Of a stretch of DNA of 41,690 nt, positions 1 through 41,688 are shown piece after piece (the first letter of the stretch is position 1; each line of letters starts with the position of its first letter). The DNA lies in IMG/VR virus record IMGVR_UViG_3300047550_000958, positions 1 to 41,690 of that record; one strand, 5' to 3'. A program made the position numbers and the translations under genes. This DNA comes from a virus. Taxonomy: Duplodnaviria > Caudoviricetes. Under the pieces are notes generated by a model. The model did no database searches, was not told where the DNA came from, and worked only from the letters and a program-made list of their open reading frames with translations.

Positions 1-127
1 CGGCGTGCGCTTCTTAGCTGTCACGCGGGATGAGATACCACTCAACACTTCACGCGCAACACTTTTCTGTAGGAATCTACGGCTTGAGCTGGTTGATGCG
101 TGTGATCTCCACCGCACCGTACTGCTC
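1..127 (+). repeat. Exact 127-bp direct repeat, copy 1
   Basis: Identical to 39333-39459; first mismatch at 128 (C) vs 39460 (T). Confidence 0.95.
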
Positions 128-675: not shown

Positions 676-3600
676 CTACCTTAGCTTCTTCTCTATCATT
701 CGCTGCGCGTCATCCACAGAACCGACTACGCCAGCCAAGGAACCATCTGGGGAGTATACCCTGAACTTGCTCTTGGTCTTTCCCGGAAGGATGCGGTAGC
801 CCGACATTGAGTAGGCACCGGGGATGGATGGGTCTGGGACCAGTGCGGGCATGTACCGTATATCCGCGCTGCTCTGCTGAAACCGTTGGCTGAGAGGGAT
901 GATGTTGCCCGCATCGTCGCGGGTAATGGGGTCGGCGGATTTGATCTGGGATGGGTCGAATACGCTCATCTGAGCAGGGCTGTCTCCAAACTTTGTTTTC
1001 AATGTTCCGGATGCTATCACAGCATCAAACCCTGCATCTTTCGCCTTCTGTATGGTTTCCGCATCCGTTGCTCCGGGGAACATTTCAAACAACTTGTTTG
1101 CGGCATCAGTGGCATCTTTTCCAATGATTGGATTTTTTGCCATTGCATACGCTTTCAAAACCTTGTTTCCACCAATCCGTTTTGCGTATGAAGTCGCCGA
1201 ACCTTCATCAAACGCCACATAAATGCCGGGACCAAAGTTGCCAATACGGCTTGGCTTGAACTCCGTGAACTCTGCGTTGGTTCCATGATACACCGGCCCC
1301 ACGTTATACCCCGCCGCTTTCGCCGCCTGATCCACGAGTTCCTGTGCCTTAGCCGTATCCCCAGCTTCCACCGCTGATAGATACTCGGCATCCGAAGGCA
1401 TGAAGCGAGGCCCAGACGGTTGCGCCTGAGCCTCACCCGAGGTCACATCCCCCGCTTGTCGAACCGGCCCGAGTGCTTGCCTGCCTTCTTCTCGGCCTTG
1501 CGTGCGGTCGAGAGCGCGATTGCGATTGCCTGCTTCTGCGGTTTGCCCGACTTCATTTCGCGCCGGATATTGCTGCTGATCGTTTTCTGGCTGTAGCCTT
1601 GTTTGAGTGGCATTTGCTTTCCTTTGTGCTTGTTCTGCGGAGTCATAGATCCCGAGGAGCTTTCCTTCGGGACCATACAACCGAAACTTGTTGCCGCTGG
1701 TTAGGATCGTGAACCCTGCACCAGACTTCCACGCCTGCTCCTCGCCCACGGATCCCGCAGGCATGAAGCGATCCTTCATCTTCTTGTAGGCGCTCTCAGA
1801 GAACTTCGCCCTGAAGTCAGACGGATCCATCTGACCCATGCGGTCCAACCGGAAGCTGTGAATGAACTCGGAGCCACCCTTTTCGGCGGAGTTCATGAAG
1901 TTCCCGAAGAACTCAGCCTTGTCCGGACCAAACAGATTGCGGCTAGGAATGGCGTTTTCCTTGCGGTCGAGGTTGGTCAGGTAGGCGTTCAGTTCACCAA
2001 GGAACTCACCAACGTTGCCCCACAGGCCACCAACGGAGCCGTCAGGACGGATAGATCTTTGCAGAGATTTCCTAACCTGCGTCAGGTCGATTGCTCGGAC
2101 GTAGGAGTTGTTCTCCTTGGACAACAGCAGGTTATACGGCAGGACCTCGCGGAACGTCACTCGCCTCGATGCATACTTGGTGCGCCAACGCTTAGAGGTC
2201 GGATCCTGAACCTTCTCGGTGGCCGGGTAGTACTCAACAAACAGCGACCGTCCTTCGTTGATGCTGCGATTGGTCATCTCCAGCCGCTGCTTCATCTGAG
2301 ACGACACCGAAGAACCCTTGATGGCGTCCAACTGTTCCGGGCTGAGATCGCCGACCACCTCGCCGTTGATGTCGATCTTGGCTCCGGGCAGTCCGTCGAT
2401 GATCTGCTTGAGCGCCGTGACGTCTCGGGTCTCACGCTGCAACAGCTCGCCGTTGGTCAGCAGCCGCACCTCTCCGGTAGGCAAACGCTCCGCGAAGCCA
2501 CCACGGACCGCGTAATCAGCAGCCACTGGGTCCAGAATGGCCTTCTGGTCGATCTTGAAGGACTTCTGATAGTCCGCGTTCAGCAGGGCCTCGTCGATGT
2601 TCTCACGAGCCTTCAGAAGCCTTCGCAGGGCAGCGTCTAGTGCTGGGGAGGCGTTCTTGATCTCTGGGAACAGCACCGAGTCGGTAGGCGTGATTCCGAA
2701 CGTCCGCTCGATGAGTTGACCGATCTTTGACCCAACACGGCTGGCCTCCTGAAGAAGCAGCATGTCTGTGAAGTTCTGTCGCGTAGATCCAAACCCGCGC
2801 AGGAATGCGTCTGGCTTCTGAGACGACAGGATCCGTCCAACCTGCTCCGCTGCCAGCTCCTCGCCAACGTAAACCGCACGGTCCGATGCCGTCGGGTTGT
2901 CCGCAATGACCTTGGTCCGGGTCTCCTCCGGAAGCATCATCACGTACTGATTAAACAGCTCCTCGACCTTGGCTGGAGTATATTGCCCCTCGCTGACCAG
3001 CCTCACCGTCCCGTCTGGGTTGGGCACATAGGCTCCGGTCAGAATCTCGACGAAACCCGTTACGTCGCCTTGGAACTGCTTGGTCTTGGCCAGTGCGTGC
3101 AGCAGCTCGTGACCCAGCGTGTAGATCGGGCTGTCACCCTTCACCTTGGGCATCGCGTCGACGTTGATGAGGATGCGTGGAGTGGCCGCATTCTCGTCAG
3201 GGACAACGCCACGAGCAGTGACACCAGCACGCTTCTTGAACTCGTCACCGCGCAGGATCTCGACACCAATGTCTCCGCGAGTGCCTTTGATGAGGCTCTC
3301 CAGATCCATCAGGTTGGCCGCAGTGTCAGTTCCGAACCGCTCTTGGACAGACTGGTAGGCCGCCTTCTTCTCCGGTGCCAGCGTGTCAACGTAGGTGGTC
3401 AGGTCGTTGAGTCGTGCAGCCTTGGCCTCACTTCCAGTCAGTGTTTGCAGACCACGAGCGCCAAGAGAACCAAGAGCACCAGCCACACCTCCGGATCCAA
3501 TTCCGGAAGCAGCTCCTTCCTCTCCTCCAGATAGATAGCCAAGAGCACCACCAACAGCAGCGCCTTCCAGCGATCCAGCAGTTCCTGCAAGTGCAGTACG

Positions 3601-4605
3601 TAGTGCAGCATCTCCACCATAACGTCCAATGGTTCCGATGATCCTTTGCCGCATGTTGGCCTCTGGGATGGCACCAACAGCCTCCAAGGCACCGATACGG
3701 GTCGGCGCACGGCCCATCTGAGCACCGGCAGCTTCTAATGCTCTTCCAAAGTCTGTGGCCGTCTCGGCAATCAATGGGACAGCACCAACAAACCCGACAG
3801 CAGGACCAGCTCCAGTTGCAGCTAGAACCCCAGAAGTAGCCGCTGCACCCCGGAGAGCTTCCGGAGAAACACCGACCGCCTCGGTTACGAACTGAGAAGC
3901 TGCCTTGGAAGCCGCCTCGATTGGCCTAGACACGGCTTGGATACCTTTGCCAGTAGCTCTAACAGCCTTCCCAACAGCCTTTGCCGCAAGCGTCTCTGCA
4001 CCCAACATCTGACCAATACCCGGCATGACCATAGTTGGGTCAGCGATCATTGCCACGGCTTGGACAAAGTCGGGGTTCGTTAGCTCCTTTGGAAGGTACG
4101 ACAGCTCACCGCGCTCATATTTGGCCAAGTCGTTATTGAATCGACGAGCCTCGATGAATTGCTTTCTCTGGGAATCGACAGTTCCGCTGCCCGCCATCAG
4201 ATCCTTCAGCGCAAATAACGCACTGTTTGGATCCTGAGATTGAGCAAGCATCCCATAGAACTGGTTAAATCCTTGACCAATTCCCTCGATGTAGTTTGCA
4301 GGGTTAAGCGCAGCACCTTCAACCACGCCAGCAGCAGCCCCACGGCCAGCAAGCCCAAGCATGTAATCTACGCCTTGAGCTATAGAATCAACGAAATCAA
4401 CCTGCTTTGTCTTGGCGTAATCCTTGTAAAGTTTGAACTCGTCCGTGGTTGGCTCGTAGGTTGGATCAGCCGCAAGCCTTTCCGCAATCTCGGCACCGTT
4501 GACTGGGAACTGCTTTTCGATCTGTAGCCTAGCCTCCTCCAGAGGCACGTCATCAGCCACCTCGACTGTTCCACGACCTCCGGGGATCTCGACTGTGTAG
4601 GGCAT
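676..4605 (-). CDS. Large internal virion (ejection) protein, polyvalent: zincin-like metallopeptidase motif plus ART-PolyVal-like ADP-ribosyltransferase domain (allele A)
   Basis: 1309 aa, last of the ejection-gene block. Gly/Ala-rich membrane-like N-half; HELLH (3097-3111) with downstream EELAAE; YHGT...FGPGIY...FDPSQIKS module at 853-1401. Confidence 0.8.
1443..1613 (-). CDS. Nested +1-frame small basic phage protein (56 aa, [34 protein letters not shown]...)
   Basis: Matches, from recall, the widespread MPLKKGxSQKTISxNI...GKPQKQAxAIAL small phage family. Preceded by AAAGGAAAGCAA-ATG (SD-like). The host frame here reads as a low-complexity R/G/E/Q linker. Confidence 0.75.
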
Positions 4606-29024: not shown

Positions 29025-30368
29025 TTACTGCTCCTGCAATAGCGCAGGTTCAAATCTGCAATAGGCTCCATCATACCAAAGAGTGACAAATCCGCATTCG
29101 CCATCTCTTTGTTTTGCTATTGCTAAAGTAGCTTCTCCTTTTGCTTCTGTTCTCTCTCGGTCTAGGAGCATGACCGTGTCTGCGTCGCGTTCGATCTGTC
29201 CTGAGTCTGCTAGGTCACTGAGTTTGGGCTTACGTCCCTTCTCCTTTTCGGATTCCCGATTGAGCTGGGCAAGGCAGAGCATGGCAGTGTTTGTGGCCAC
29301 TGCACAAGCCTTCAGAGCACCGGAGACTTCGGCAACCTCGTAGGTGCGTTTCTCGTACTTGCCCGAAGGTCTGACCTTTTGCAGGTAATCCAAGATCACC
29401 AGCTTCACTCCGTGCTTGCGTGCTGCTCTGCGAATTGCCGCCACGATGACGCCTGTCTTGGCATTGGCGGATAGGTCGAGGAAGTGCAGAGGCTTTGAGG
29501 CAATGACCTTGATGGCCTCCGACATCCTGCCCATGTGCGTATCGGAGAGTTCCCCGGTCTTGATGGCCTGCATTGGTACGTTGGCTACGGCTGAGACCAA
29601 GCGGCGCATCAGGGCCTGCTCGGACATCTCACAGGAAACGAACAAGGTCGGTACATTGCCTTCGATGCAGGCGCTCTTGGCGATGCTGATGGCTATGGCT
29701 GTCTTGCCGATGCTTGGACGTGCTGCGATCAGGGTCATCTCGCCTAGTTGGATCCCATCGGTCATGGAGTCGAGCCTTGGGATCCCAGAGGTGACACCGG
29801 AGAGCTGACCCTTGCGTTTCCAGCGTTCCTCGGTGGCTGCTATGAACGAGGTGACAACGTCTTTTGAGGACGTGGACTGTGGCGTGTGCTCACGCTCAAA
29901 GGTGATGCCAGACTCAAGCTGTGCTATGGCCTGATCCAATGGAACCGCTGAGTCCGAGGTGTCGGACAAGAGCCGGTTGGCTGCATCTCGCAGCCTGCGG
30001 CGTTGGTAGGCTTCGACTATGCCTGTGACGTAGTACGGCAGGTTGGCTTCCGATGGACAGGCCGACATCGCCTCGGTCCACAGCATGATCGGCATGGCTT
30101 GGGAGCCTTTGGTTGCCTTCCAAGCTCTGGAAAGGTTCTCAATCGAAGCCGACTTGTTCTCTCGGACCAGCCCAGAGATGACGCCCAGCGTCTCCTTGAT
30201 GTCGTCGGTGATGACCATCTCCGATGTCACCTGCGCCACTGCTTCGGCAGCAGTGTCTAGGTTCCCCATCAGGCATGCGCCGATCAGTCCAAGCTCATCC
30301 TTCGACGCAAAATAGGCTTCGGAAGGTTCAGGCTGAACCGTATCCGAAAGGATTTCATCGAGGTTCAT
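29025..30368 (-). CDS. dnaB: Replicative DNA helicase (DnaB family)
   Basis: AARPSIGKT, SCEM, ILDYLQ, LAQLNR, DLADSGQIERDAD, KQRDG. Confidence 0.95.
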   Translation of the reverse strand: MNLDEILSDTVQPEPSEAYFASKDELGLIGACLMGNLDTAAEAVAQVTSEMVITDDIKETLGVISGLVRENKSASIENLSRAWKATKGSQAMPIMLWTEAMSACPSEANLPYYVTGIVEAYQRRRLRDAANRLLSDTSDSAVPLDQAIAQLESGITFEREHTPQSTSSKDVVTSFIAATEERWKRKGQLSGVTSGIPRLDSMTDGIQLGEMTLIAARPSIGKTAIAISIAKSACIEGNVPTLFVSCEMSEQALMRRLVSAVANVPMQAIKTGELSDTHMGRMSEAIKVIASKPLHFLDLSANAKTGVIVAAIRRAARKHGVKLVILDYLQKVRPSGKYEKRTYEVAEVSGALKACAVATNTAMLCLAQLNRESEKEKGRKPKLSDLADSGQIERDADTVMLLDRERTEAKGEATLAIAKQRDGECGFVTLWYDGAYCRFEPALLQEQ

Positions 30369-31138
30369 TAAATCCAATCCTTTAGGTCGAGCTTGGGTTT
30401 CTCACCGTTGGCAACAACAACCTTCGGCAGATCCTTTGGCGGGAAGATCCCAGACCAGCCGTTGGCCATCGAGGTTTCTACCGCAAGCGGGAAGGTCGCC
30501 GGGGTAAACTCACGAGACCACTTTGTTACGGCTGCTCGTAGCCCGGTGGCTTTGTAGCCCTCCTTGCGCTCCTTCTTGTACTCAAGCCAGAGCTTCACTG
30601 CCTCAAGGCAGTTCTGCGTCTGCATGCTCTCAGGCAACTCCACATCGAAGGCAACAAGCCAAGGCGACTTATCTTGTTCCTTTCCTTGTTCCCTTCCCTT
30701 CCCTTCCTTATGGCACGCGTCATCCACGCGTGGGTCACGCGTGAGGCACGCGTCGGTCACGCGTGAAATATCAGCAGAAACACCAATGATTTCAATGTTT
30801 TCACCTGTAGGTTCAGGGATGTCAGATGCCTTCTCCTTGTTGTTTATCACCTGATGCCGAAGGAACCCCGGAATGTGTCCAAAAACACGCGTGCCTGACG
30901 CGTACTTCACGAGAAAGCCACGCGTGGTCAACGCGTGAAGCACGCGTGAAAAGTCCACATCGTCGTAGGGTAGAATCTGGATCCCAAGCCTCCTTGGTTC
31001 CCACCTGAAACGACCCTCCCGATCTGCGGCGCACCAGAGTCCGGCGAACGCCACTCGCAACGGCATCCCTTCCTCGATCTCTGCTTGATAGAGTCCCTCG
31101 TGGAGGAAGAACTCAGGCTTTATGCTTCTGATTCTCAT
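30368..31138 (-). CDS. Phage replication initiator (lambda O-like role)
   Basis: MRIRSIKPEFF...GLWCAADREGR wHTH-like N-terminus; KEGKGREQGKE linker; internal iterons; directly upstream of dnaB. Start at the ATGA overlap. Confidence 0.8.
   Translation of the reverse strand: MRIRSIKPEFFLHEGLYQAEIEEGMPLRVAFAGLWCAADREGRFRWEPRRLGIQILPYDDVDFSRVLHALTTRGFLVKYASGTRVFGHIPGFLRHQVINNKEKASDIPEPTGENIEIIGVSADISRVTDACLTRDPRVDDACHKEGKGREQGKEQDKSPWLVAFDVELPESMQTQNCLEAVKLWLEYKKERKEGYKATGLRAAVTKWSREFTPATFPLAVETSMANGWSGIFPPKDLPKVVVANGEKPKLDLKDWI
30714..30764. repeat. Iteron cluster 1: five CACGCGT at 11-bp period (candidate origin)
   Basis: Units start at 30714, 30725, 30736, 30747 and 30758. Confidence 0.85.
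30886..30947. repeat. Iteron cluster 2: six NACGCGT-like units at 11-bp period
   Basis: Units start at 30886, 30897, 30908 (degenerate CACGAGA), 30919, 30930 and 30941. Confidence 0.8.
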
Positions 31139-31881
31139 TGGTTGTTCAGTGTTTGCCATGCCTTTCGAACCACTGCTGGAACTTGTCCGTTTCCAATGCA
31201 TTTAAGTCTGTCCACCCGATTGGCCACCCCATCAGCCACTCGACCCAGTTCGGGTTTAGAGCCGCTCGTTCGGTTTGCTGGGTCTCTGGTAAACCAAGCG
31301 ACGCCATCCTCCGCGCTATCCGGCCTCCCTTGTCCATTTTGGCCAGAGTCTTCCATTTGGTTCCATTGTCCCTTCCTTCCGTTGCAACAGGGGTAGGCCA
31401 TGATCCAGATCCTATCCCTTCGATGAGGCGCACCGACGTGATGCGCTCCCACAATTCCCCAGACCGCATCATACCCCAGCTTGGCAAGATCACCAAGGAC
31501 CACGGCAAGTCCTCTGGAAACAAGCAGAGGTGAGTTTTCCACCCAGACGTATCTGGGTCAAACCTCGCCGACAACCCTCGCCATCTGCTTCCAGAGACCC
31601 GATCTGTCGGATTCGATTCCAGCACCTTTTCCTGCGGAGCTGATGTCCTGACACGGGAATCCTCCAGAGACGATATCCACCCGTCCAGACCAAGGTCGCC
31701 CGTCGAATGTCGTGATGTCATCCCAGATTGGGAACGGCCTGAGTGATCGGTCGTTTTGTCGATTGATAAGGACGTATCTGGCGTACTTGTTGATCTCGAC
31801 GGCGCACACGCACCGCCATCCAAGCAAGTGACCGCCGAGAATTCCTCCTCCAGCGCCTGCGAAAAGTGCCAACTCATTCAT
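31135..31881 (-). pseudogene. C5-cytosine DNA methyltransferase alpha frame, interrupted by an in-frame TGA at 31558-31560
   Basis: Motif I LFAGAGG, IV GGFPCQDIS, then GEV*PRYVWVENS (VI), PHRRDRIWI (VIII) and LKCIGNGQVP (X), all in one frame. Confidence 0.8.
31146..31877 (-). CDS. Overlapping alternative-frame MTase beta polypeptide
   Basis: 243 aa open frame inside the alpha gene, carrying WPTP and LNPNWVEWLMGWPIGWTD (motif IX-like, absent from the alpha frame). Confidence 0.7.
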   Translation of the reverse strand: MSWHFSQALEEEFSAVTCLDGGACAPSRSTSTPDTSLSIDKTTDHSGRSQSGMTSRHSTGDLGLDGWISSLEDSRVRTSAPQEKVLESNPTDRVSGSRWRGLSARFDPDTSGWKTHLCLFPEDLPWSLVILPSWGMMRSGELWERITSVRLIEGIGSGSWPTPVATEGRDNGTKWKTLAKMDKGGRIARRMASLGLPETQQTERAALNPNWVEWLMGWPIGWTDLNALETDKFQQWFERHGKH

Positions 31882-31896
31882 TTACTCCAACAAAAA

Positions 31897-31980
31897 CCCC
31901 AGTCCAGCCAACAACGTTGACACAGGCGCACCGTGGAACCCATTGGGAACCACTTACCTTCGTTGCTGGCTGGACTGGGG
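31897..31980 (-). promoter_or_regulatory. 20-bp-stem hairpin followed by a U-rich run (attenuator/terminator-like)
   Basis: Arms 31897-31916 and 31961-31980, with one G-U pair in minus-strand RNA; then TTTTTGTT just before the MTase start. Confidence 0.6.
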
Positions 31981-32069
31981 GCTTTGGATGTCATTGTGCG
32001 CGGGGTGTCAAACCCGGTTCCTCAAGCGAGGAACGACTTACTGCTAAACCTTACCTCAAAGACTGTCCA

Positions 32070-37385: not shown

Positions 37386-38380
37386 ACTTTGGCCAGATAG
37401 GTGGACGCAGGCTTGTGCCGGATCAGGCCAGACAGCCGCTCGGTGACACGATTCTCAGCCTCCTTTCGTGTCAGACCCAGCTTCTGGTACTCAGCGATCA
37501 AACTGGTGATCGAGAGTTTGCAGGCATTGATGAATGCCTCGGAAGCCAGCCCTGAGCGGCTGAACGCCTCGTTGATGTCCTCCGGCGCTATCTCTCGACT
37601 GCCAGCGCGTGTCTTGAGCGCGTAGCCGGGGATCTCCAACCCGTCCTTCGCGGCCTGAGCGCAGTATTGCTTCACCTCTGCCGCCCAGTCAGCGGCTAGA
37701 CTAGCTAGATTAAGTGCCTTTGCCAGCGACTCCGGGGAGGTGACAGACAAGTCCTCGACCCGGGCCAGCTCGTAGGCGTCAGCAACCTTGTTGACCTCCT
37801 TGAGCCTAACTTTGCAGTAGGCCGAGTGTTTGCACCAGCCGCAGTAGTCAGAGACACGGCAGACCGTGGTGGGATCCGCGATCTCATCGAGGATGGGCCA
37901 GAGCAACGCCTCGGCCTCAGCACGCGTGATCGTGTAGGACACCGCCTTGAGCCGCTCACCGAAGAGCAGGTGGACCGTGATCTCTGAGTAGGACTCACGC
38001 TGCATCAGGCCCAATGCATAGGCGGCCATCTGCTCGCGGTAGTTGCGCTCCACCCACTTCAGATCGAACAGATGAGAACCAGCAATGACATCGGCAGTAC
38101 CCCGAAGGACAACAGTGTTATCCCTAGCCACTTCAACCGTGGTCTCGGACAGAATCTGAATGCCAACGGGCACCACAGATCGGATATAGTCAAAGGCCCA
38201 TTGGACGGCCTGTTGTTCTTCAGAGGGAAGTAACGCATAGATGTCCTGCTTGCCTGCCAGCAGCTCGGAGAGAGCTAGGTGACGGTCTGTGCCTGCTTCG
38301 GTGGCCTTGGTTGGTCCGCCGGGTTCCCAGCGCGGTGACTTGGCCTGAGCCGGAAGTGCTGATGGTCTGGTGAGGATCAT
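37382..38380 (-). CDS. PD-(D/E)XK nuclease (DUF2800/Cas4-like recombination exonuclease)
   Basis: RPSAL, GTDRH, GTADV...DLKW, QMAAYA, YCGWC...C. Confidence 0.8.
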   Translation of the reverse strand: MILTRPSALPAQAKSPRWEPGGPTKATEAGTDRHLALSELLAGKQDIYALLPSEEQQAVQWAFDYIRSVVPVGIQILSETTVEVARDNTVVLRGTADVIAGSHLFDLKWVERNYREQMAAYALGLMQRESYSEITVHLLFGERLKAVSYTITRAEAEALLWPILDEIADPTTVCRVSDYCGWCKHSAYCKVRLKEVNKVADAYELARVEDLSVTSPESLAKALNLASLAADWAAEVKQYCAQAAKDGLEIPGYALKTRAGSREIAPEDINEAFSRSGLASEAFINACKLSITSLIAEYQKLGLTRKEAENRVTERLSGLIRHKPASTYLAKV

Positions 38381-39207
38381 GCGGCCTCCTCTGGCGTATG
38401 CTTACGGACCGCATCAAGGAAGGCGTCCGGCTTGCCCAAGATCTTGGAGCAACGCGCTTCGGACAGGTCACGGATCGTCTCACCAGCAGCGATCCACTTC
38501 TTGGCCACGAGGAAGTCTCGGCCTTGGCCCAGCACGTCATTCTCAGCAAGCAGTTTGACCACCTGAGCCTGCAACGTCAGCCCCGGCTCGGTGTCCTCCT
38601 GAGGAGGAGTGGACACGATCTCAACCTCGACCGGAGACGGTGCAGGCTGCGGAGCGATGACCTGCGCCGAAGGCTTCTGGTCGAAGTCCGCGATCTCCTC
38701 AGGCGTGTAGCTGCCAGTGCAGACCTCCGGGGCCAGCATACGAACCGCCTTGGAGATCAGCCTCGCACGCATCATCTCCGCCGGGAACTTGGCCCAGCCG
38801 GAACCGCTACGCGCAGGCAGGAACCCCGCAGCCTTCGCATCCTCGGCAGTGTAGGATAGCTCGATGTCGTTGCCGTCGTAGATGAACTGAGCCTTGGCAC
38901 CAAGCGCGTCGAACTGCTTCCAGATGACCTTGCCTCCCCTTTCCCTGTAGAGGGCCAGCATTGCGTCTGCACGCAGGCTTAGACGGCCTTGAATGACGTG
39001 GTAGTGCTTGGCCATCTCCAGCGGTGGCTTGCGTTCCACGAGGCACTGGAGGGCCAGTAGGTTGCCTTGCTCTGGCCGATCCGCTCCGAACATGCCAGAG
39101 CGACAAATCCACTCACCCAACTGGGTGGCAGCGGACATTGGGTCCGCGACCTTGTCGTAGGTATGCAGGGCGGATGACTGTGTGTGTAGTGTAGGTAGGT
39201 TACTCAT
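38377..39207 (-). CDS. RecT-like ssDNA annealing protein
   Basis: HVIQGRLSLRAD, WAKFPAEMMRARLISKAVR...PEV..GSYTPEE; paired with the exonuclease. Confidence 0.75.
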   Translation of the reverse strand: MSNLPTLHTQSSALHTYDKVADPMSAATQLGEWICRSGMFGADRPEQGNLLALQCLVERKPPLEMAKHYHVIQGRLSLRADAMLALYRERGGKVIWKQFDALGAKAQFIYDGNDIELSYTAEDAKAAGFLPARSGSGWAKFPAEMMRARLISKAVRMLAPEVCTGSYTPEEIADFDQKPSAQVIAPQPAPSPVEVEIVSTPPQEDTEPGLTLQAQVVKLLAENDVLGQGRDFLVAKKWIAAGETIRDLSEARCSKILGKPDAFLDAVRKHTPEEAA

Positions 39208-39356: not shown

Positions 39357-39459
39357 GCGGGATGAGATACCACTCAACACTTCACGCGCAACACTTTTCT
39401 GTAGGAATCTACGGCTTGAGCTGGTTGATGCGTGTGATCTCCACCGCACCGTACTGCTC
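39333..39459 (+). repeat. Exact 127-bp direct repeat, copy 2
   Basis: Identical to 1-127. Confidence 0.95.
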
Positions 39460-40005
39460 TGGAGCGCCTGCAAAGTCGGTGGCAATGCCTAGGCCATCAC
39501 CAGCCTGCGCTCGTTCCACCTGATAGCGGATCTGGTAGCTGGTCTTCTTCTTCGGACTGACCAGCGCATTGAGATCTGTGACACCCATGACGCCGCCGCT
39601 GAAGAAGCTGTTAAGGCCGAAGGCTACCGTGGTCTGGTCCGTGCCGTTCCACAAAGCCAGCCGCGTCGCAAGCGTGTGATGGAAGGTGAACACCGCCTTG
39701 ATCTTGTACTTGCCCGGCTCAAGCGTGAACGTGTTCCCAGCCAGCATCTCCACCGTCTCGCCCTCGTCCCAGGTGACCTCGTTGATCGGTCTCGGTGTCC
39801 AGTCCACGACCGTCTGATCCGCAGTGTACGACGTCTGGTCGGCGGTGATCGTCGTCATGTCCGCCGTAATCGCCATCGTGGCTGATCCGCCGTCCTCCCC
39901 TGTGGGGAGCTCCATGTTGAGGATGGCGTTGCGAACCAAGAGCCCATCGACGTCGGCCCTGAGTTTGTTGAGCAACGCGTTCGACGTCTTTGGATCGTAG
40001 GCCAT
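39409..40005 (-). CDS. Putative virion protein (allele B of 77-673)
   Basis: 198 aa, colinear, about 86% identical. Confidence 0.8.
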   Translation of the reverse strand: MAYDPKTSNALLNKLRADVDGLLVRNAILNMELPTGEDGGSATMAITADMTTITADQTSYTADQTVVDWTPRPINEVTWDEGETVEMLAGNTFTLEPGKYKIKAVFTFHHTLATRLALWNGTDQTTVAFGLNSFFSGGVMGVTDLNALVSPKKKTSYQIRYQVERAQAGDGLGIATDFAGAPEQYGAVEITRINQLKP

Positions 40006-40008
40006 TGG

Positions 40009-41688
40009 TCAGCGGAGTTTGCGTTGAATCATGCGCTGCGCCTCGTCGTTGCTCGAAGCGATGCCTAGCAGACCACCTGTCGGGCTGTATACGCGGACTC
40101 GTCCCTTGGTCTTCCCGGGCAGTATGCGATAGCCGCTCATGGAGTAGGCACCGGGGATGGAGGGGTCGGGAACCGGAGCGGGCATGTACTTTTGAGCCTC
40201 AATCATCGAGTATTTCCGGCCAACAGACTTCGGAGCAAACGGCTCGACCGCTACCACATCAGTGAGTTCGTAGCCATACTTCAAGCCTCCCTTTTTTATG
40301 TCGTAAGGTGACCCGGCAGAAACTTGATGACGGCCTTCATCTCTGCGGAACTCAGATTCGTTTTGGTAGACAATTGGCTGCTTTGCGACGGTGGCGTATC
40401 CGACAACTTTCGTGTCTCCAGTTCCTGTTCTGGTGATTCCGATGCGTTGGCCCAACACTCCTTGCAATGCGTTGTTCAACGTATCTCGCGTCTCAATTGT
40501 CTTTTCTCCACGCAGTATCTGACCAGTGAAGTCTTGAGATGAGTCGTTGATGTTTACCGACCGAGTGACTTCACGATCGGACGGCATGAGCCTGGCGCCT
40601 GCTATCTCTGCCGACTGGGGCTGAACGACCGCTGCTGAAACATCTCCGCCAGAAGCTGGAAGTCCTGGGGTCCCGGGCTCCATTCCTTCGTTGGGAGCTG
40701 GCCCACTAGGTACCTGTCTTGCTTCGAGGACAGCCCGCCTGCGGTCCAATTCATTGCGACGGCTAGTTCGGCCATTGTCCGAGGGCGTTGCGGAGCTGTA
40801 TTCTTCGATTCCATAGACAGTTGTGGATACCCACCCGGGTTGCTTGTAGCTGACGTTCTCAATCTGATCGAGCGAGAGAGCAGCGTTTCTCGTCTTGTTC
40901 ATCCATTCGGTCGCGAAGTCAATGGATTTGTCCGGATCAAGGTGCTCGATCGTGTCGAATCTGGCTGAAATCTCAGGGATGTACTGAGCTCTGATTCCGA
41001 TGACCTTGCCCCTGGTATCCTTGGCGATCGTGAATCCGTCGATGCCGTTGGAACGGAACGCTTGAACGACTGCCTGGACGTCTTCAGGTGAAGCTGCCTT
41101 CTTGAACCCGATCTCGACCATTGGCCTTGCGTTTGGATGGTTTTGGTCGACCACCTTCGAGACGAATACATCGTTCTGTTTGCGTCCCTGTTCCGATGCA
41201 ATCCGAATGATCTCTGCGACCTGGCTTGAGATGTCCTGTGAACTTCCGTCTGGCTTGCGTTGAACCGAGAACTCCACGTCAAACGAGGGCTCGATGTAGT
41301 CTCCGTACATGCCATCGGAGTGCGTGACTCTGGAGCTAGTCATCCCGGGGATCTTGGCAATCGAGTTCCTAAGTGCCATCCGCTCCTTCTCCTGGATTTC
41401 TGGGCTGTACTGTTCCGGAGTCGTGAAGGTGGTCACACCGGCCTGATAGCGATCCAGCGCCAGCTTACTTGCTTCCTTGTCGAAGCTGGATTTCTCAGCT
41501 CCGACCGTGGACGTCCATCCGTTCTTCTCCCAGACGTCCTTCTCCATGAACCACATCAGGGCCTGGAGATCGTCTGCGTTCATTCCCAGTCGTTTCGCGA
41601 CCGTGTCGTAGACGTCCTGGGCGAAGAAGAAGTCCGGATCAGTGACGCCAGATTCTTGTTCTGGAAGGATGCGCCATCGCTTTGCTTT
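40009..41688 (-). CDS. Large polyvalent ejection protein, allele B (5'-partial), with ASCH-like module
   Basis: Frame is open to the window end. C-terminal about 58 aa match allele A; QILRGEKTIETR (ASCH GxKxxExR) at 40186-40587; upstream domains differ from allele A. Confidence 0.8.
   Translation of the reverse strand, partial: KAKRWRILPEQESGVTDPDFFFAQDVYDTVAKRLGMNADDLQALMWFMEKDVWEKNGWTSTVGAEKSSFDKEASKLALDRYQAGVTTFTTPEQYSPEIQEKERMALRNSIAKIPGMTSSRVTHSDGMYGDYIEPSFDVEFSVQRKPDGSSQDISSQVAEIIRIASEQGRKQNDVFVSKVVDQNHPNARPMVEIGFKKAASPEDVQAVVQAFRSNGIDGFTIAKDTRGKVIGIRAQYIPEISARFDTIEHLDPDKSIDFATEWMNKTRNAALSLDQIENVSYKQPGWVSTTVYGIEEYSSATPSDNGRTSRRNELDRRRAVLEARQVPSGPAPNEGMEPGTPGLPASGGDVSAAVVQPQSAEIAGARLMPSDREVTRSVNINDSSQDFTGQILRGEKTIETRDTLNNALQGVLGQRIGITRTGTGDTKVVGYATVAKQPIVYQNESEFRRDEGRHQVSAGSPYDIKKGGLKYGYELTDVVAVEPFAPKSVGRKYSMIEAQKYMPAPVPDPSIPGAYSMSGYRILPGKTKGRVRVYSPTGGLLGIASSNDEAQRMIQRKLR
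40602..40814 (-). CDS. Candidate nested +1-frame ORF (70 aa, MESKNTAPQRPRTMAELAVAMNW...)
   Basis: Same relative frame and position as the nested gene in allele A; no SD seen and no family recognised. Confidence 0.4.
   Translation of the reverse strand: MESKNTAPQRPRTMAELAVAMNWTAGGLSSKQDRYLVGQLPTKEWSPGPQDFQLLAEMFQQRSFSPSRQR

Follow-up and report, generated by a model that had tools for sequence, protein, structure and literature searches.

The C-terminal part of a large protein encoded in this phage DNA is divided by short recurring junctions, and the question raised by the locus is whether these junctions are DNA sites at which protein modules are exchanged or signals that are read in the protein. 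Polyvalent proteins of phages and conjugative elements were defined by Iyer et al. (2017; PMC5512222), so the protein type itself is already known. A first-pass annotation had proposed that two alleles of such a protein carry an ART-like and an ASCH-like module in the same slot, and that the junction motif is a standard socket for the in-frame exchange of injected anti-host effectors. Here, the window refers to the whole stretch of DNA analyzed (41,690 nt; IMGVR_UViG_3300047550_000958). The cassette feature is real and well supported in a family of freshwater phages, but it had been misframed in the window.

The composition of the window is set by an exact repeat:
1..127, no strand: exact 127-nt repeat, which closes the circle of phage A.
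39333..39459, no strand: second copy of the repeat, at which the contig switches from phage A to a rarer relative, B.

Between the two copies lies one phage genome of ~39.3 kb, with genes for the terminase, scaffold, SU10-type capsid, tail, DnaB and a RecT-like protein; past the repeat, the two window copies are only 65-84% identical per 100 nt. Read depth was taken from the two runs, both of one freshwater sample, that contained most of the window's end. It was 287 and 185 until position 39459 and 11-60 over most of the remainder (16-50 in the best-matching run, that with 287). Because of the exact repeat and the drop in depth, the window is the full circle of the dominant phage A with 2.2 kb of the rarer relative B appended, and the juxtaposition is most likely a chimeric join through the common 127-mer. 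The same two observations ruled out two alleles in one genome and a tandem prophage. In B, the 367 aa upstream of the ASCH module have no significant match to A, and the pair therefore reveals only the 3' breakpoint. The nearest relative of B (L003, 82% identical over 504 aa) has a core only ~51% identical to that of A. The supposed alleles therefore belong to two phage populations joined in one contig. Such a join might suggest that the whole modular picture is an assembly artefact, an explanation that hardly merits credence, since modules of unchanged length and borders turn up again in numerous independent assemblies, arranged in many orders.

A 355-nt branch at window positions 39430-39784, with a depth of 16-22 where most of B has ~50, connects the B-type end with A-type DNA; a minority of the source molecules may be recombinants of A and B.

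The protein of phage A has the following parts:
676..4605, minus strand: polyvalent protein of phage A, 1309 aa, the last gene of the virion gene block.
2806..3288, minus strand: predicted zincin-like metallopeptidase domain, ~residues 440-600.
3097-3111, minus strand: HExxH motif, residues 499-503, with the distal Glu at 2857-2859.
1786..2451, minus strand: core domain of WYL-like predicted fold, ~residues 719-940 (Z 8.3, rmsd 2.8, 89 aligned).
1759..1770, minus strand: junction tag 1, RFMP, residues 946-949, a fixed site where no module exchange was seen.
1402..1764, minus strand: fixed 121-aa segment, consisting of a paralogue of the C-terminal small domain, RLQP and a low-confidence linker.
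1588-1599, minus strand: the conserved RLQP within this segment.
1396..1407, minus strand: junction tag 2, RFMP, residues 1067-1070.
853..1401, minus strand: ART-PolyVal module, 183 aa, with a Pfam match at 931-1293, a conserved leader and tail and a variable core.
847..858, minus strand: junction tag 3, RYMP, residues 1250-1253.
676..852, minus strand: the fixed 58-aa domain at the C terminus of A, with its stop codon.

The corresponding features of B are as follows:
40009..41688, minus strand: truncated polyvalent protein of relative B, a 5'-truncated ORF of 559 aa.
40588..41688, minus strand: C-terminal part of an exchangeable module of class N18, full-length members of which match DUF7178.
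40582..40593, minus strand: junction tag RLMP.
40186..40587, minus strand: ASCH-fold module, 134 aa, in a slot that also occurs empty.
40180..40191, minus strand: junction tag KYMP.
40009..40185, minus strand: the fixed 58-aa domain at the C terminus of B, with its stop codon.

The gene of phage A lies in a same-strand block with the terminase, scaffold, SU10-type capsid and tail genes, and its product combines an HExxH domain, a WYL-like domain and ART-PolyVal in 1309 aa, that is, at least two biochemically disparate domains. Gene position and family suggest that the protein is packaged into the virion and delivered to the host. The His, Glu and His of the predicted peptidase and two distal Glu residues are invariant in 25 of 25 aligned rows. 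The domain has no Pfam match, and its best fold rows in Foldseek were a zincin toxin peptidase (a weak match, E 2.4e-3), a comparison also drawn for the polyvalent-protein domain in PMC5512222. In a wide structure search with a 681-aa model, WYL and helical matches took up the top 50 rows, and no zincin was among them. A complex prediction of residues 420-679 with a 33-aa peptide around tag 2 gave a score of 0.01, which is uninformative both ways. Both modelled tags fall in stretches with pLDDT <50. WYL domains sense single-stranded DNA, and the WYL-like domain of the model might gate the peptidase.

The motif [RK][FYL]MP occurs five times in the six frames of the window, and all five occurrences are in frame within the A and B ORFs. 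The two modules lie between these junctions as first described (183 codons at 853-1401 and 134 codons at 40186-40587), and the common C-terminal domain was borne out, with 75% identity over 60 aa. The DNA identities cited for a socket have a different bearing. The 12 nt common to the 3' junctions are present at 845 and 40178, but they are merely the start of the common C-terminal domain; the 13-nt repeat is present at 1396 and 1759, but it borders the fixed 121-aa segment rather than the ART module. For the ART and ASCH modules, the flanking identity amounts to just 6 nt.

The small end domain has no family match. It occurs twice in A (window 1600-1764 and 679-852; 46% over 37 aa), each copy directly behind a tag. 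At the other end of the protein, the N-terminal ~30 aa (window ~4500-4605; P0004-P0013) exist in three or four unrelated versions on cores that are 94-97% identical.

The module identities proposed in the annotation were upheld. Module A passes the PF18760 cut-off (68.4 vs 31.2 bits, E 1.5e-18), and motifs that may supply the His and Tyr of the H-Y-D active-site triad are visible in its sequence. The ART core is swapped between a conserved leader (~30 aa) and a conserved tail (~35 aa), with 28 cores in 61 modules, and the nearest relatives of A break inside the ART module, at ~950-960 and ~1250-1340. Judged from these alignments, exchange has a second tier, in which the ART core is replaced inside the module. 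T4 Alt, on which the idea of an injected ADP-ribosyltransferase is modelled (PMC5512222, section 9), is a stand-alone R-S-E enzyme, in contrast to the many cores set between one leader and tail in the phage A family.

Module B has no Pfam match, and ASCH is found on 16-18% of the members of its viral look-alike clusters. Its predicted structure (pLDDT 80) best matches AF2351 (2kku) and ZmASCH (5guq/5y6b), with E values of 4.9e-4 to 5.7e-3, a TM score of ~0.6 and 17-20% identity, and ASCH entries make up almost all of the ten best Foldseek rows. By this model, module B has the ASCH fold; it differs from AF2351 and ZmASCH in being an embedded cassette. The slot also occurs empty: in a 1408-nt contig from a different study, 40152 is connected to 40582 through 15 other letters, so that 138 codons are removed in frame and RLMP runs directly into the end domain. 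A similar joint in the source sample has depths of 35 and 33 vs 23 and 11 for the ASCH-filled form, and this is weaker evidence (likeness 90, with 30 letters on the short side).

Stand-alone ASCH genes also occur (L090:6959-7375, L092:5835-6251, L095:6950-7345), each with a ~10-aa leader ending in Glu. This leader presumably resembles the pattern of T4 internal proteins' capsid targeting sequence. The concept of that sequence is described in PMC3012670. The leader hints that this ASCH family may be virion cargo.

To place A and B among their relatives, 119 distinct proteins were kept from protein and locus searches. Splitting at the tag produced 33 clusters, or 25 after 8 fixed domains or mis-split segments were left out. 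Comparison of these proteins establishes a fixed core and a fixed end domain, the C-terminal third being a variable series of modules, each set off by R-[FYLWN]-M-P. Sixty-two architectures were found in the 80 full-length proteins, built from ~25 variable module classes of nearly constant length (N7 262 aa in 12/12, N9 134 in 10/10, N3 71-72 in 45/45), and ASCH alone has seven upstream and seven downstream neighbour classes. Among the modules that can be named are ART-PolyVal, PBECR5, DUF7178, a ParB-C-like domain and, with a score under the cut-off, GNAT; most classes have no family match, and NCBIfam applied to 24 proteins gave nothing useful. Modules of N7 are 95% identical between cores that are 40-65% identical, and those of N11 and N12 are 83-88% identical, cores in these comparisons ranging over 39-68%; whole modules therefore move between clades. 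Fourteen relatives with cores 87-97% identical to that of A bear zero to three further modules.

If exchange takes place at the junctions, homology should break there, and this was the test suggested in the first-pass annotation. Breakpoints were called from alignments alone, without using the motif, in 85 proteins and, at the DNA level, in 52 genes; five short or motif-less proteins had been dropped before the first breakpoint test, of which L030 re-entered later. Protein alignment starts peak at the tag Arg (offset -2, 665 ends), and alignment ends peak at +2 and +1 (625 and 377), the Pro or the next residue. With a motif pattern that was widened after the data had been seen, a tag was no more than 10 aa away for 231 of 836 collapsed protein sites (82 ± 9 expected by chance; highest value 114 in 1000), and a breakpoint was present at 227 of 258 tags. 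At the DNA level, 723 of 1243 events had a tag no more than 30 nt away in each of the two partners, and 213 of 415 distinct sites lay within 45 nt (chance 62 ± 7); the sequences are related, so these sites are not independent events. The remaining 605 protein sites and 202 DNA sites, away from the tag, include swaps within ART, matches between small-domain paralogues and alignment drop-off. Clustering at the motif was thus confirmed at both levels, and RLQP and RYLP variants also act as junctions. Modules N11, N12 and N15 are exchanged 14-29 codons upstream of the tag and yet carry their own tag; because they bring their own 14-29 residues ahead of it, crossovers need not fall on the tag. As a description of cassettes with breakpoints on the motif, the idea of a standard socket holds among the relatives, but there is no fixed DNA socket, and some swaps lie upstream of the motif or inside ART.

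The DNA of the tag is not constant. The 167 tags in 52 genes are spelled by 49 different 12-mers that use all six Arg and all four Pro codons, with no conserved flank, and no integron-like conserved recombination site was found at these borders. Nor was a dedicated site-specific recombinase found among the 30 larger window ORFs scanned. Integron cassettes and other site-specific shuffling systems form ordered arrays of self-contained exchangeable units; unlike integrons, the phage A family has neither a conserved DNA site nor a detected integrase, and its units are in-frame protein domains. A possible recombination function is encoded in the window:
38377..39207, minus strand: RecT-like single-strand annealing protein (phrog_561, E 1.8e-27), a candidate for the exchanges.

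The presence of this gene fits an explanation by which the tag is DNA microhomology, copied to every junction by recombination, and the peptide is a by-product with no role in the protein. Lambda Red, for comparison, recombines diverged DNA (PMC2327257). Counted from the ATG, DNA alignments in the family begin at -6 or 0 and stop at +4 to +7. Tag codons are also somewhat more uniform than those of the genes as a whole (G or C at the third base of Arg in 154/161 vs 60%; TTC in 92/95 vs 74%), and flanking repeats of at least 11 nt were found in 17.6% of 142 segments, where 6.7 ± 2.0% was expected from codon usage. The excess of long repeats together with variable codons indicates mild homogenization and no fixed site. 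Against microhomology as the origin of the tag, silent positions vary freely, and the exact repeat between the two tags of a segment has a median of 7 nt, the 13-nt repeat of the window being among the eight longest of the 142 segments. Moreover, the peptide is kept where no exchange was seen, with F, L and W interchanging: the residue-946 tag is RWMP, RFMP or RLMP in 62 of 62 proteins in which the site was located, and in 24 of 25 aligned rows this tag stays R[FLW]MP amid varying neighbours. Given also the upstream exchanges of N11, N12 and N15, we consider the microhomology explanation improbable.

Related modules in other phages are joined by other tags. In 81 proteins of 240-850 aa (P0084-P0165) with related ASCH, ART and methyltransferase modules, the junctions are Asn-Pro, which occurs 391 times vs 83 expected and at which alignment ends peak; these proteins, many of which may be fragments, have no R-x-M-P and no HExxH (0/81). 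Behind the same ART tail stands R[YF]MP in the phage A family (63/63) and RNP in the Asn-Pro family (12/12). Among 147 diverse ART-bearing representatives, the tail was found in 130, of which 78 have HExxH and 109 have an R-aromatic tag behind the tail. The third residue of this tag is Ser in 65, Met in 17, Gln in 12, Ala in 4 and another residue in 11. The tag ahead of the leader is mostly of the same class as that behind the tail (S 57/58 assignable, with 38 unassignable; M 8/11, Q 7/9, A 3/3). With such varied tags around the same modules, the junction signature is a widespread one, of which R-[FY]-M-P represents one dialect. Since the tag DNA varies, the peptide is kept without exchange and other lineages use other tags, the tag is more likely a peptide signal than a DNA socket, as far as comparison of these sequences can tell.

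The second residue of the tag tracks the upstream module, and with N3 it is always Asn. N3 (72 aa, 45 copies; e.g., L054:9575-9790) always precedes RNMP, a form between the RNP and R-x-MP dialects.

The comparison between lineages also bears on the view that translation also starts internally, at the ATG of each tag, so that the modules are made as separate proteins as well. All modules begin with Met-Pro, like several genes of this phage, which would agree with such starts. However, the Met position is filled by Ser, Gln or Ala in sister lineages, the RLQP and RYLP junctions lack the Met too, the Arg and aromatic residue ahead of Met are kept as amino acids with variable codons, and no consistent ribosome-binding signal precedes the five window tags. 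Internal initiation is accordingly very unlikely.

The residues at position 2 of the tag (F, Y, W and L) would fit the P1' preference of zincins and the bacterial N-degron set, so that the exact bond cut would decide the lifetime of the released modules. Autoproteolytic release was proposed for polyvalent proteins in section 8 of PMC5512222. The chances are about even, on the sequences at hand, that the tag is where the modules would be released, through cutting by the HExxH zinc peptidase predicted in the protein itself. The polyvalent protein would probably be packaged in the virion and then injected, and its predicted peptidase would cut at the tags. The freed ART, ASCH, PBECR5, GNAT and other modules may then act as effectors on host targets; gene context and family are consistent with injection and with the anti-host action claimed for the modules. 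In the DNA, the RecT-like protein would recombine co-infecting relatives through common flanks and the 5-13 nt of identity supplied by the tag. Crossovers in or near the tag would preserve the frame, and each module would keep the signal at both ends. With in-frame products tagged at both ends, selection would therefore retain such recombinants, and the socket would then be a consequence of the peptide signal and not a site-specific DNA system.

The tag might instead be read by something else, namely a different protease, of the phage or of the host, or a binding partner such as the capsid wall, portal or ejection chaperone, with no cutting by the protein's own peptidase. Every peptide-level result fits such a reader equally, and the Asn-Pro family manages without HExxH in all of its 81 proteins. 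Section 8 of PMC5512222 also gives counter-cases to processing by such a domain: packaging of the N4 virion RNAP takes place without processing, and transfer leaves ArdC and TraC1 at full length although they have it. On the other side, the zinc ligands are invariant in the phage A family, and no other protease was found among the 30 larger window ORFs searched with Pfam or the 13 proteins compared with PHROGs. We regard a foreign reader as rather unlikely, though a serious alternative.

Cutting by the protein's own peptidase can be extended to a lineage-specific punctuation code. Polyvalent proteins would process themselves, the zinc peptidase of each lineage reading a tag of its own, R-[FY]-M-P in the phage A family and R-[FY]-S, R-[FY]-Q, R-F-A or Asn-Pro in others. 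Modules would be re-tagged on entry into another lineage, and the tag would double as a guide for recombination, giving a shared plug-and-play library of injected effectors. This extension is put forward tentatively, as a reading that may well fail. If it is true, the tags would show precisely where thousands of unknown effector domains begin and end, and they would define a new family of site-specific proteases.

With respect to known systems, the phage A protein resembles the polyvalent proteins of PMC5512222 in being a large late-region protein with a zincin-like HExxH domain, ART-PolyVal, PBECR5, GNAT and unknown domains in mosaic architectures. Unlike in that account, the borders, the tag and recent exchanges have been mapped for the phage A family. 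No junction tag or cut site was found named in the main text of PMC5512222 (the words 'linker' and 'ASCH' each occur 0 times), and no description of a junction tag in polyvalent proteins was found in the openly accessible literature, the FTP supplements of the 2017 study excepted. Podovirus ejection proteins are likewise large virion proteins with a metallopeptidase motif: the C1 domain of the N4 virion RNAP has HExxH (PMC13434306), and phi24B gp47 was detected in virions and proposed as an ejection protein (10.64898/2026.04.10.717836). The accessible accounts of these two proteins describe no repeated tag or release of modules. The proposal of 2017 that polyvalent proteins release domains by autoproteolysis gains a concrete, testable site from the tag. 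Near-identical modules on distant backbones and filled or empty slots give a population-level view of domain gain and loss. The ~25 module classes delimited by the tag, most without a family match, are candidate anti-defence effectors with exact borders.

As for the phage itself, tblastn of the polyvalent-protein core against 50,697 records found no named phage relative. A genome scan found no host: the two MAG contigs that it recovered, of differing taxa, resemble binned phage contigs. Elsewhere in the window, an intergenic 26-nt inverted repeat (31891-31986) has arms 88% complementary and 44 nt apart. Two inverted blocks of 11-nt tandem repeats lie at 30693-30951, inside an ORF (30368-31201) that resembles a replication initiator, and these blocks are probably the origin.
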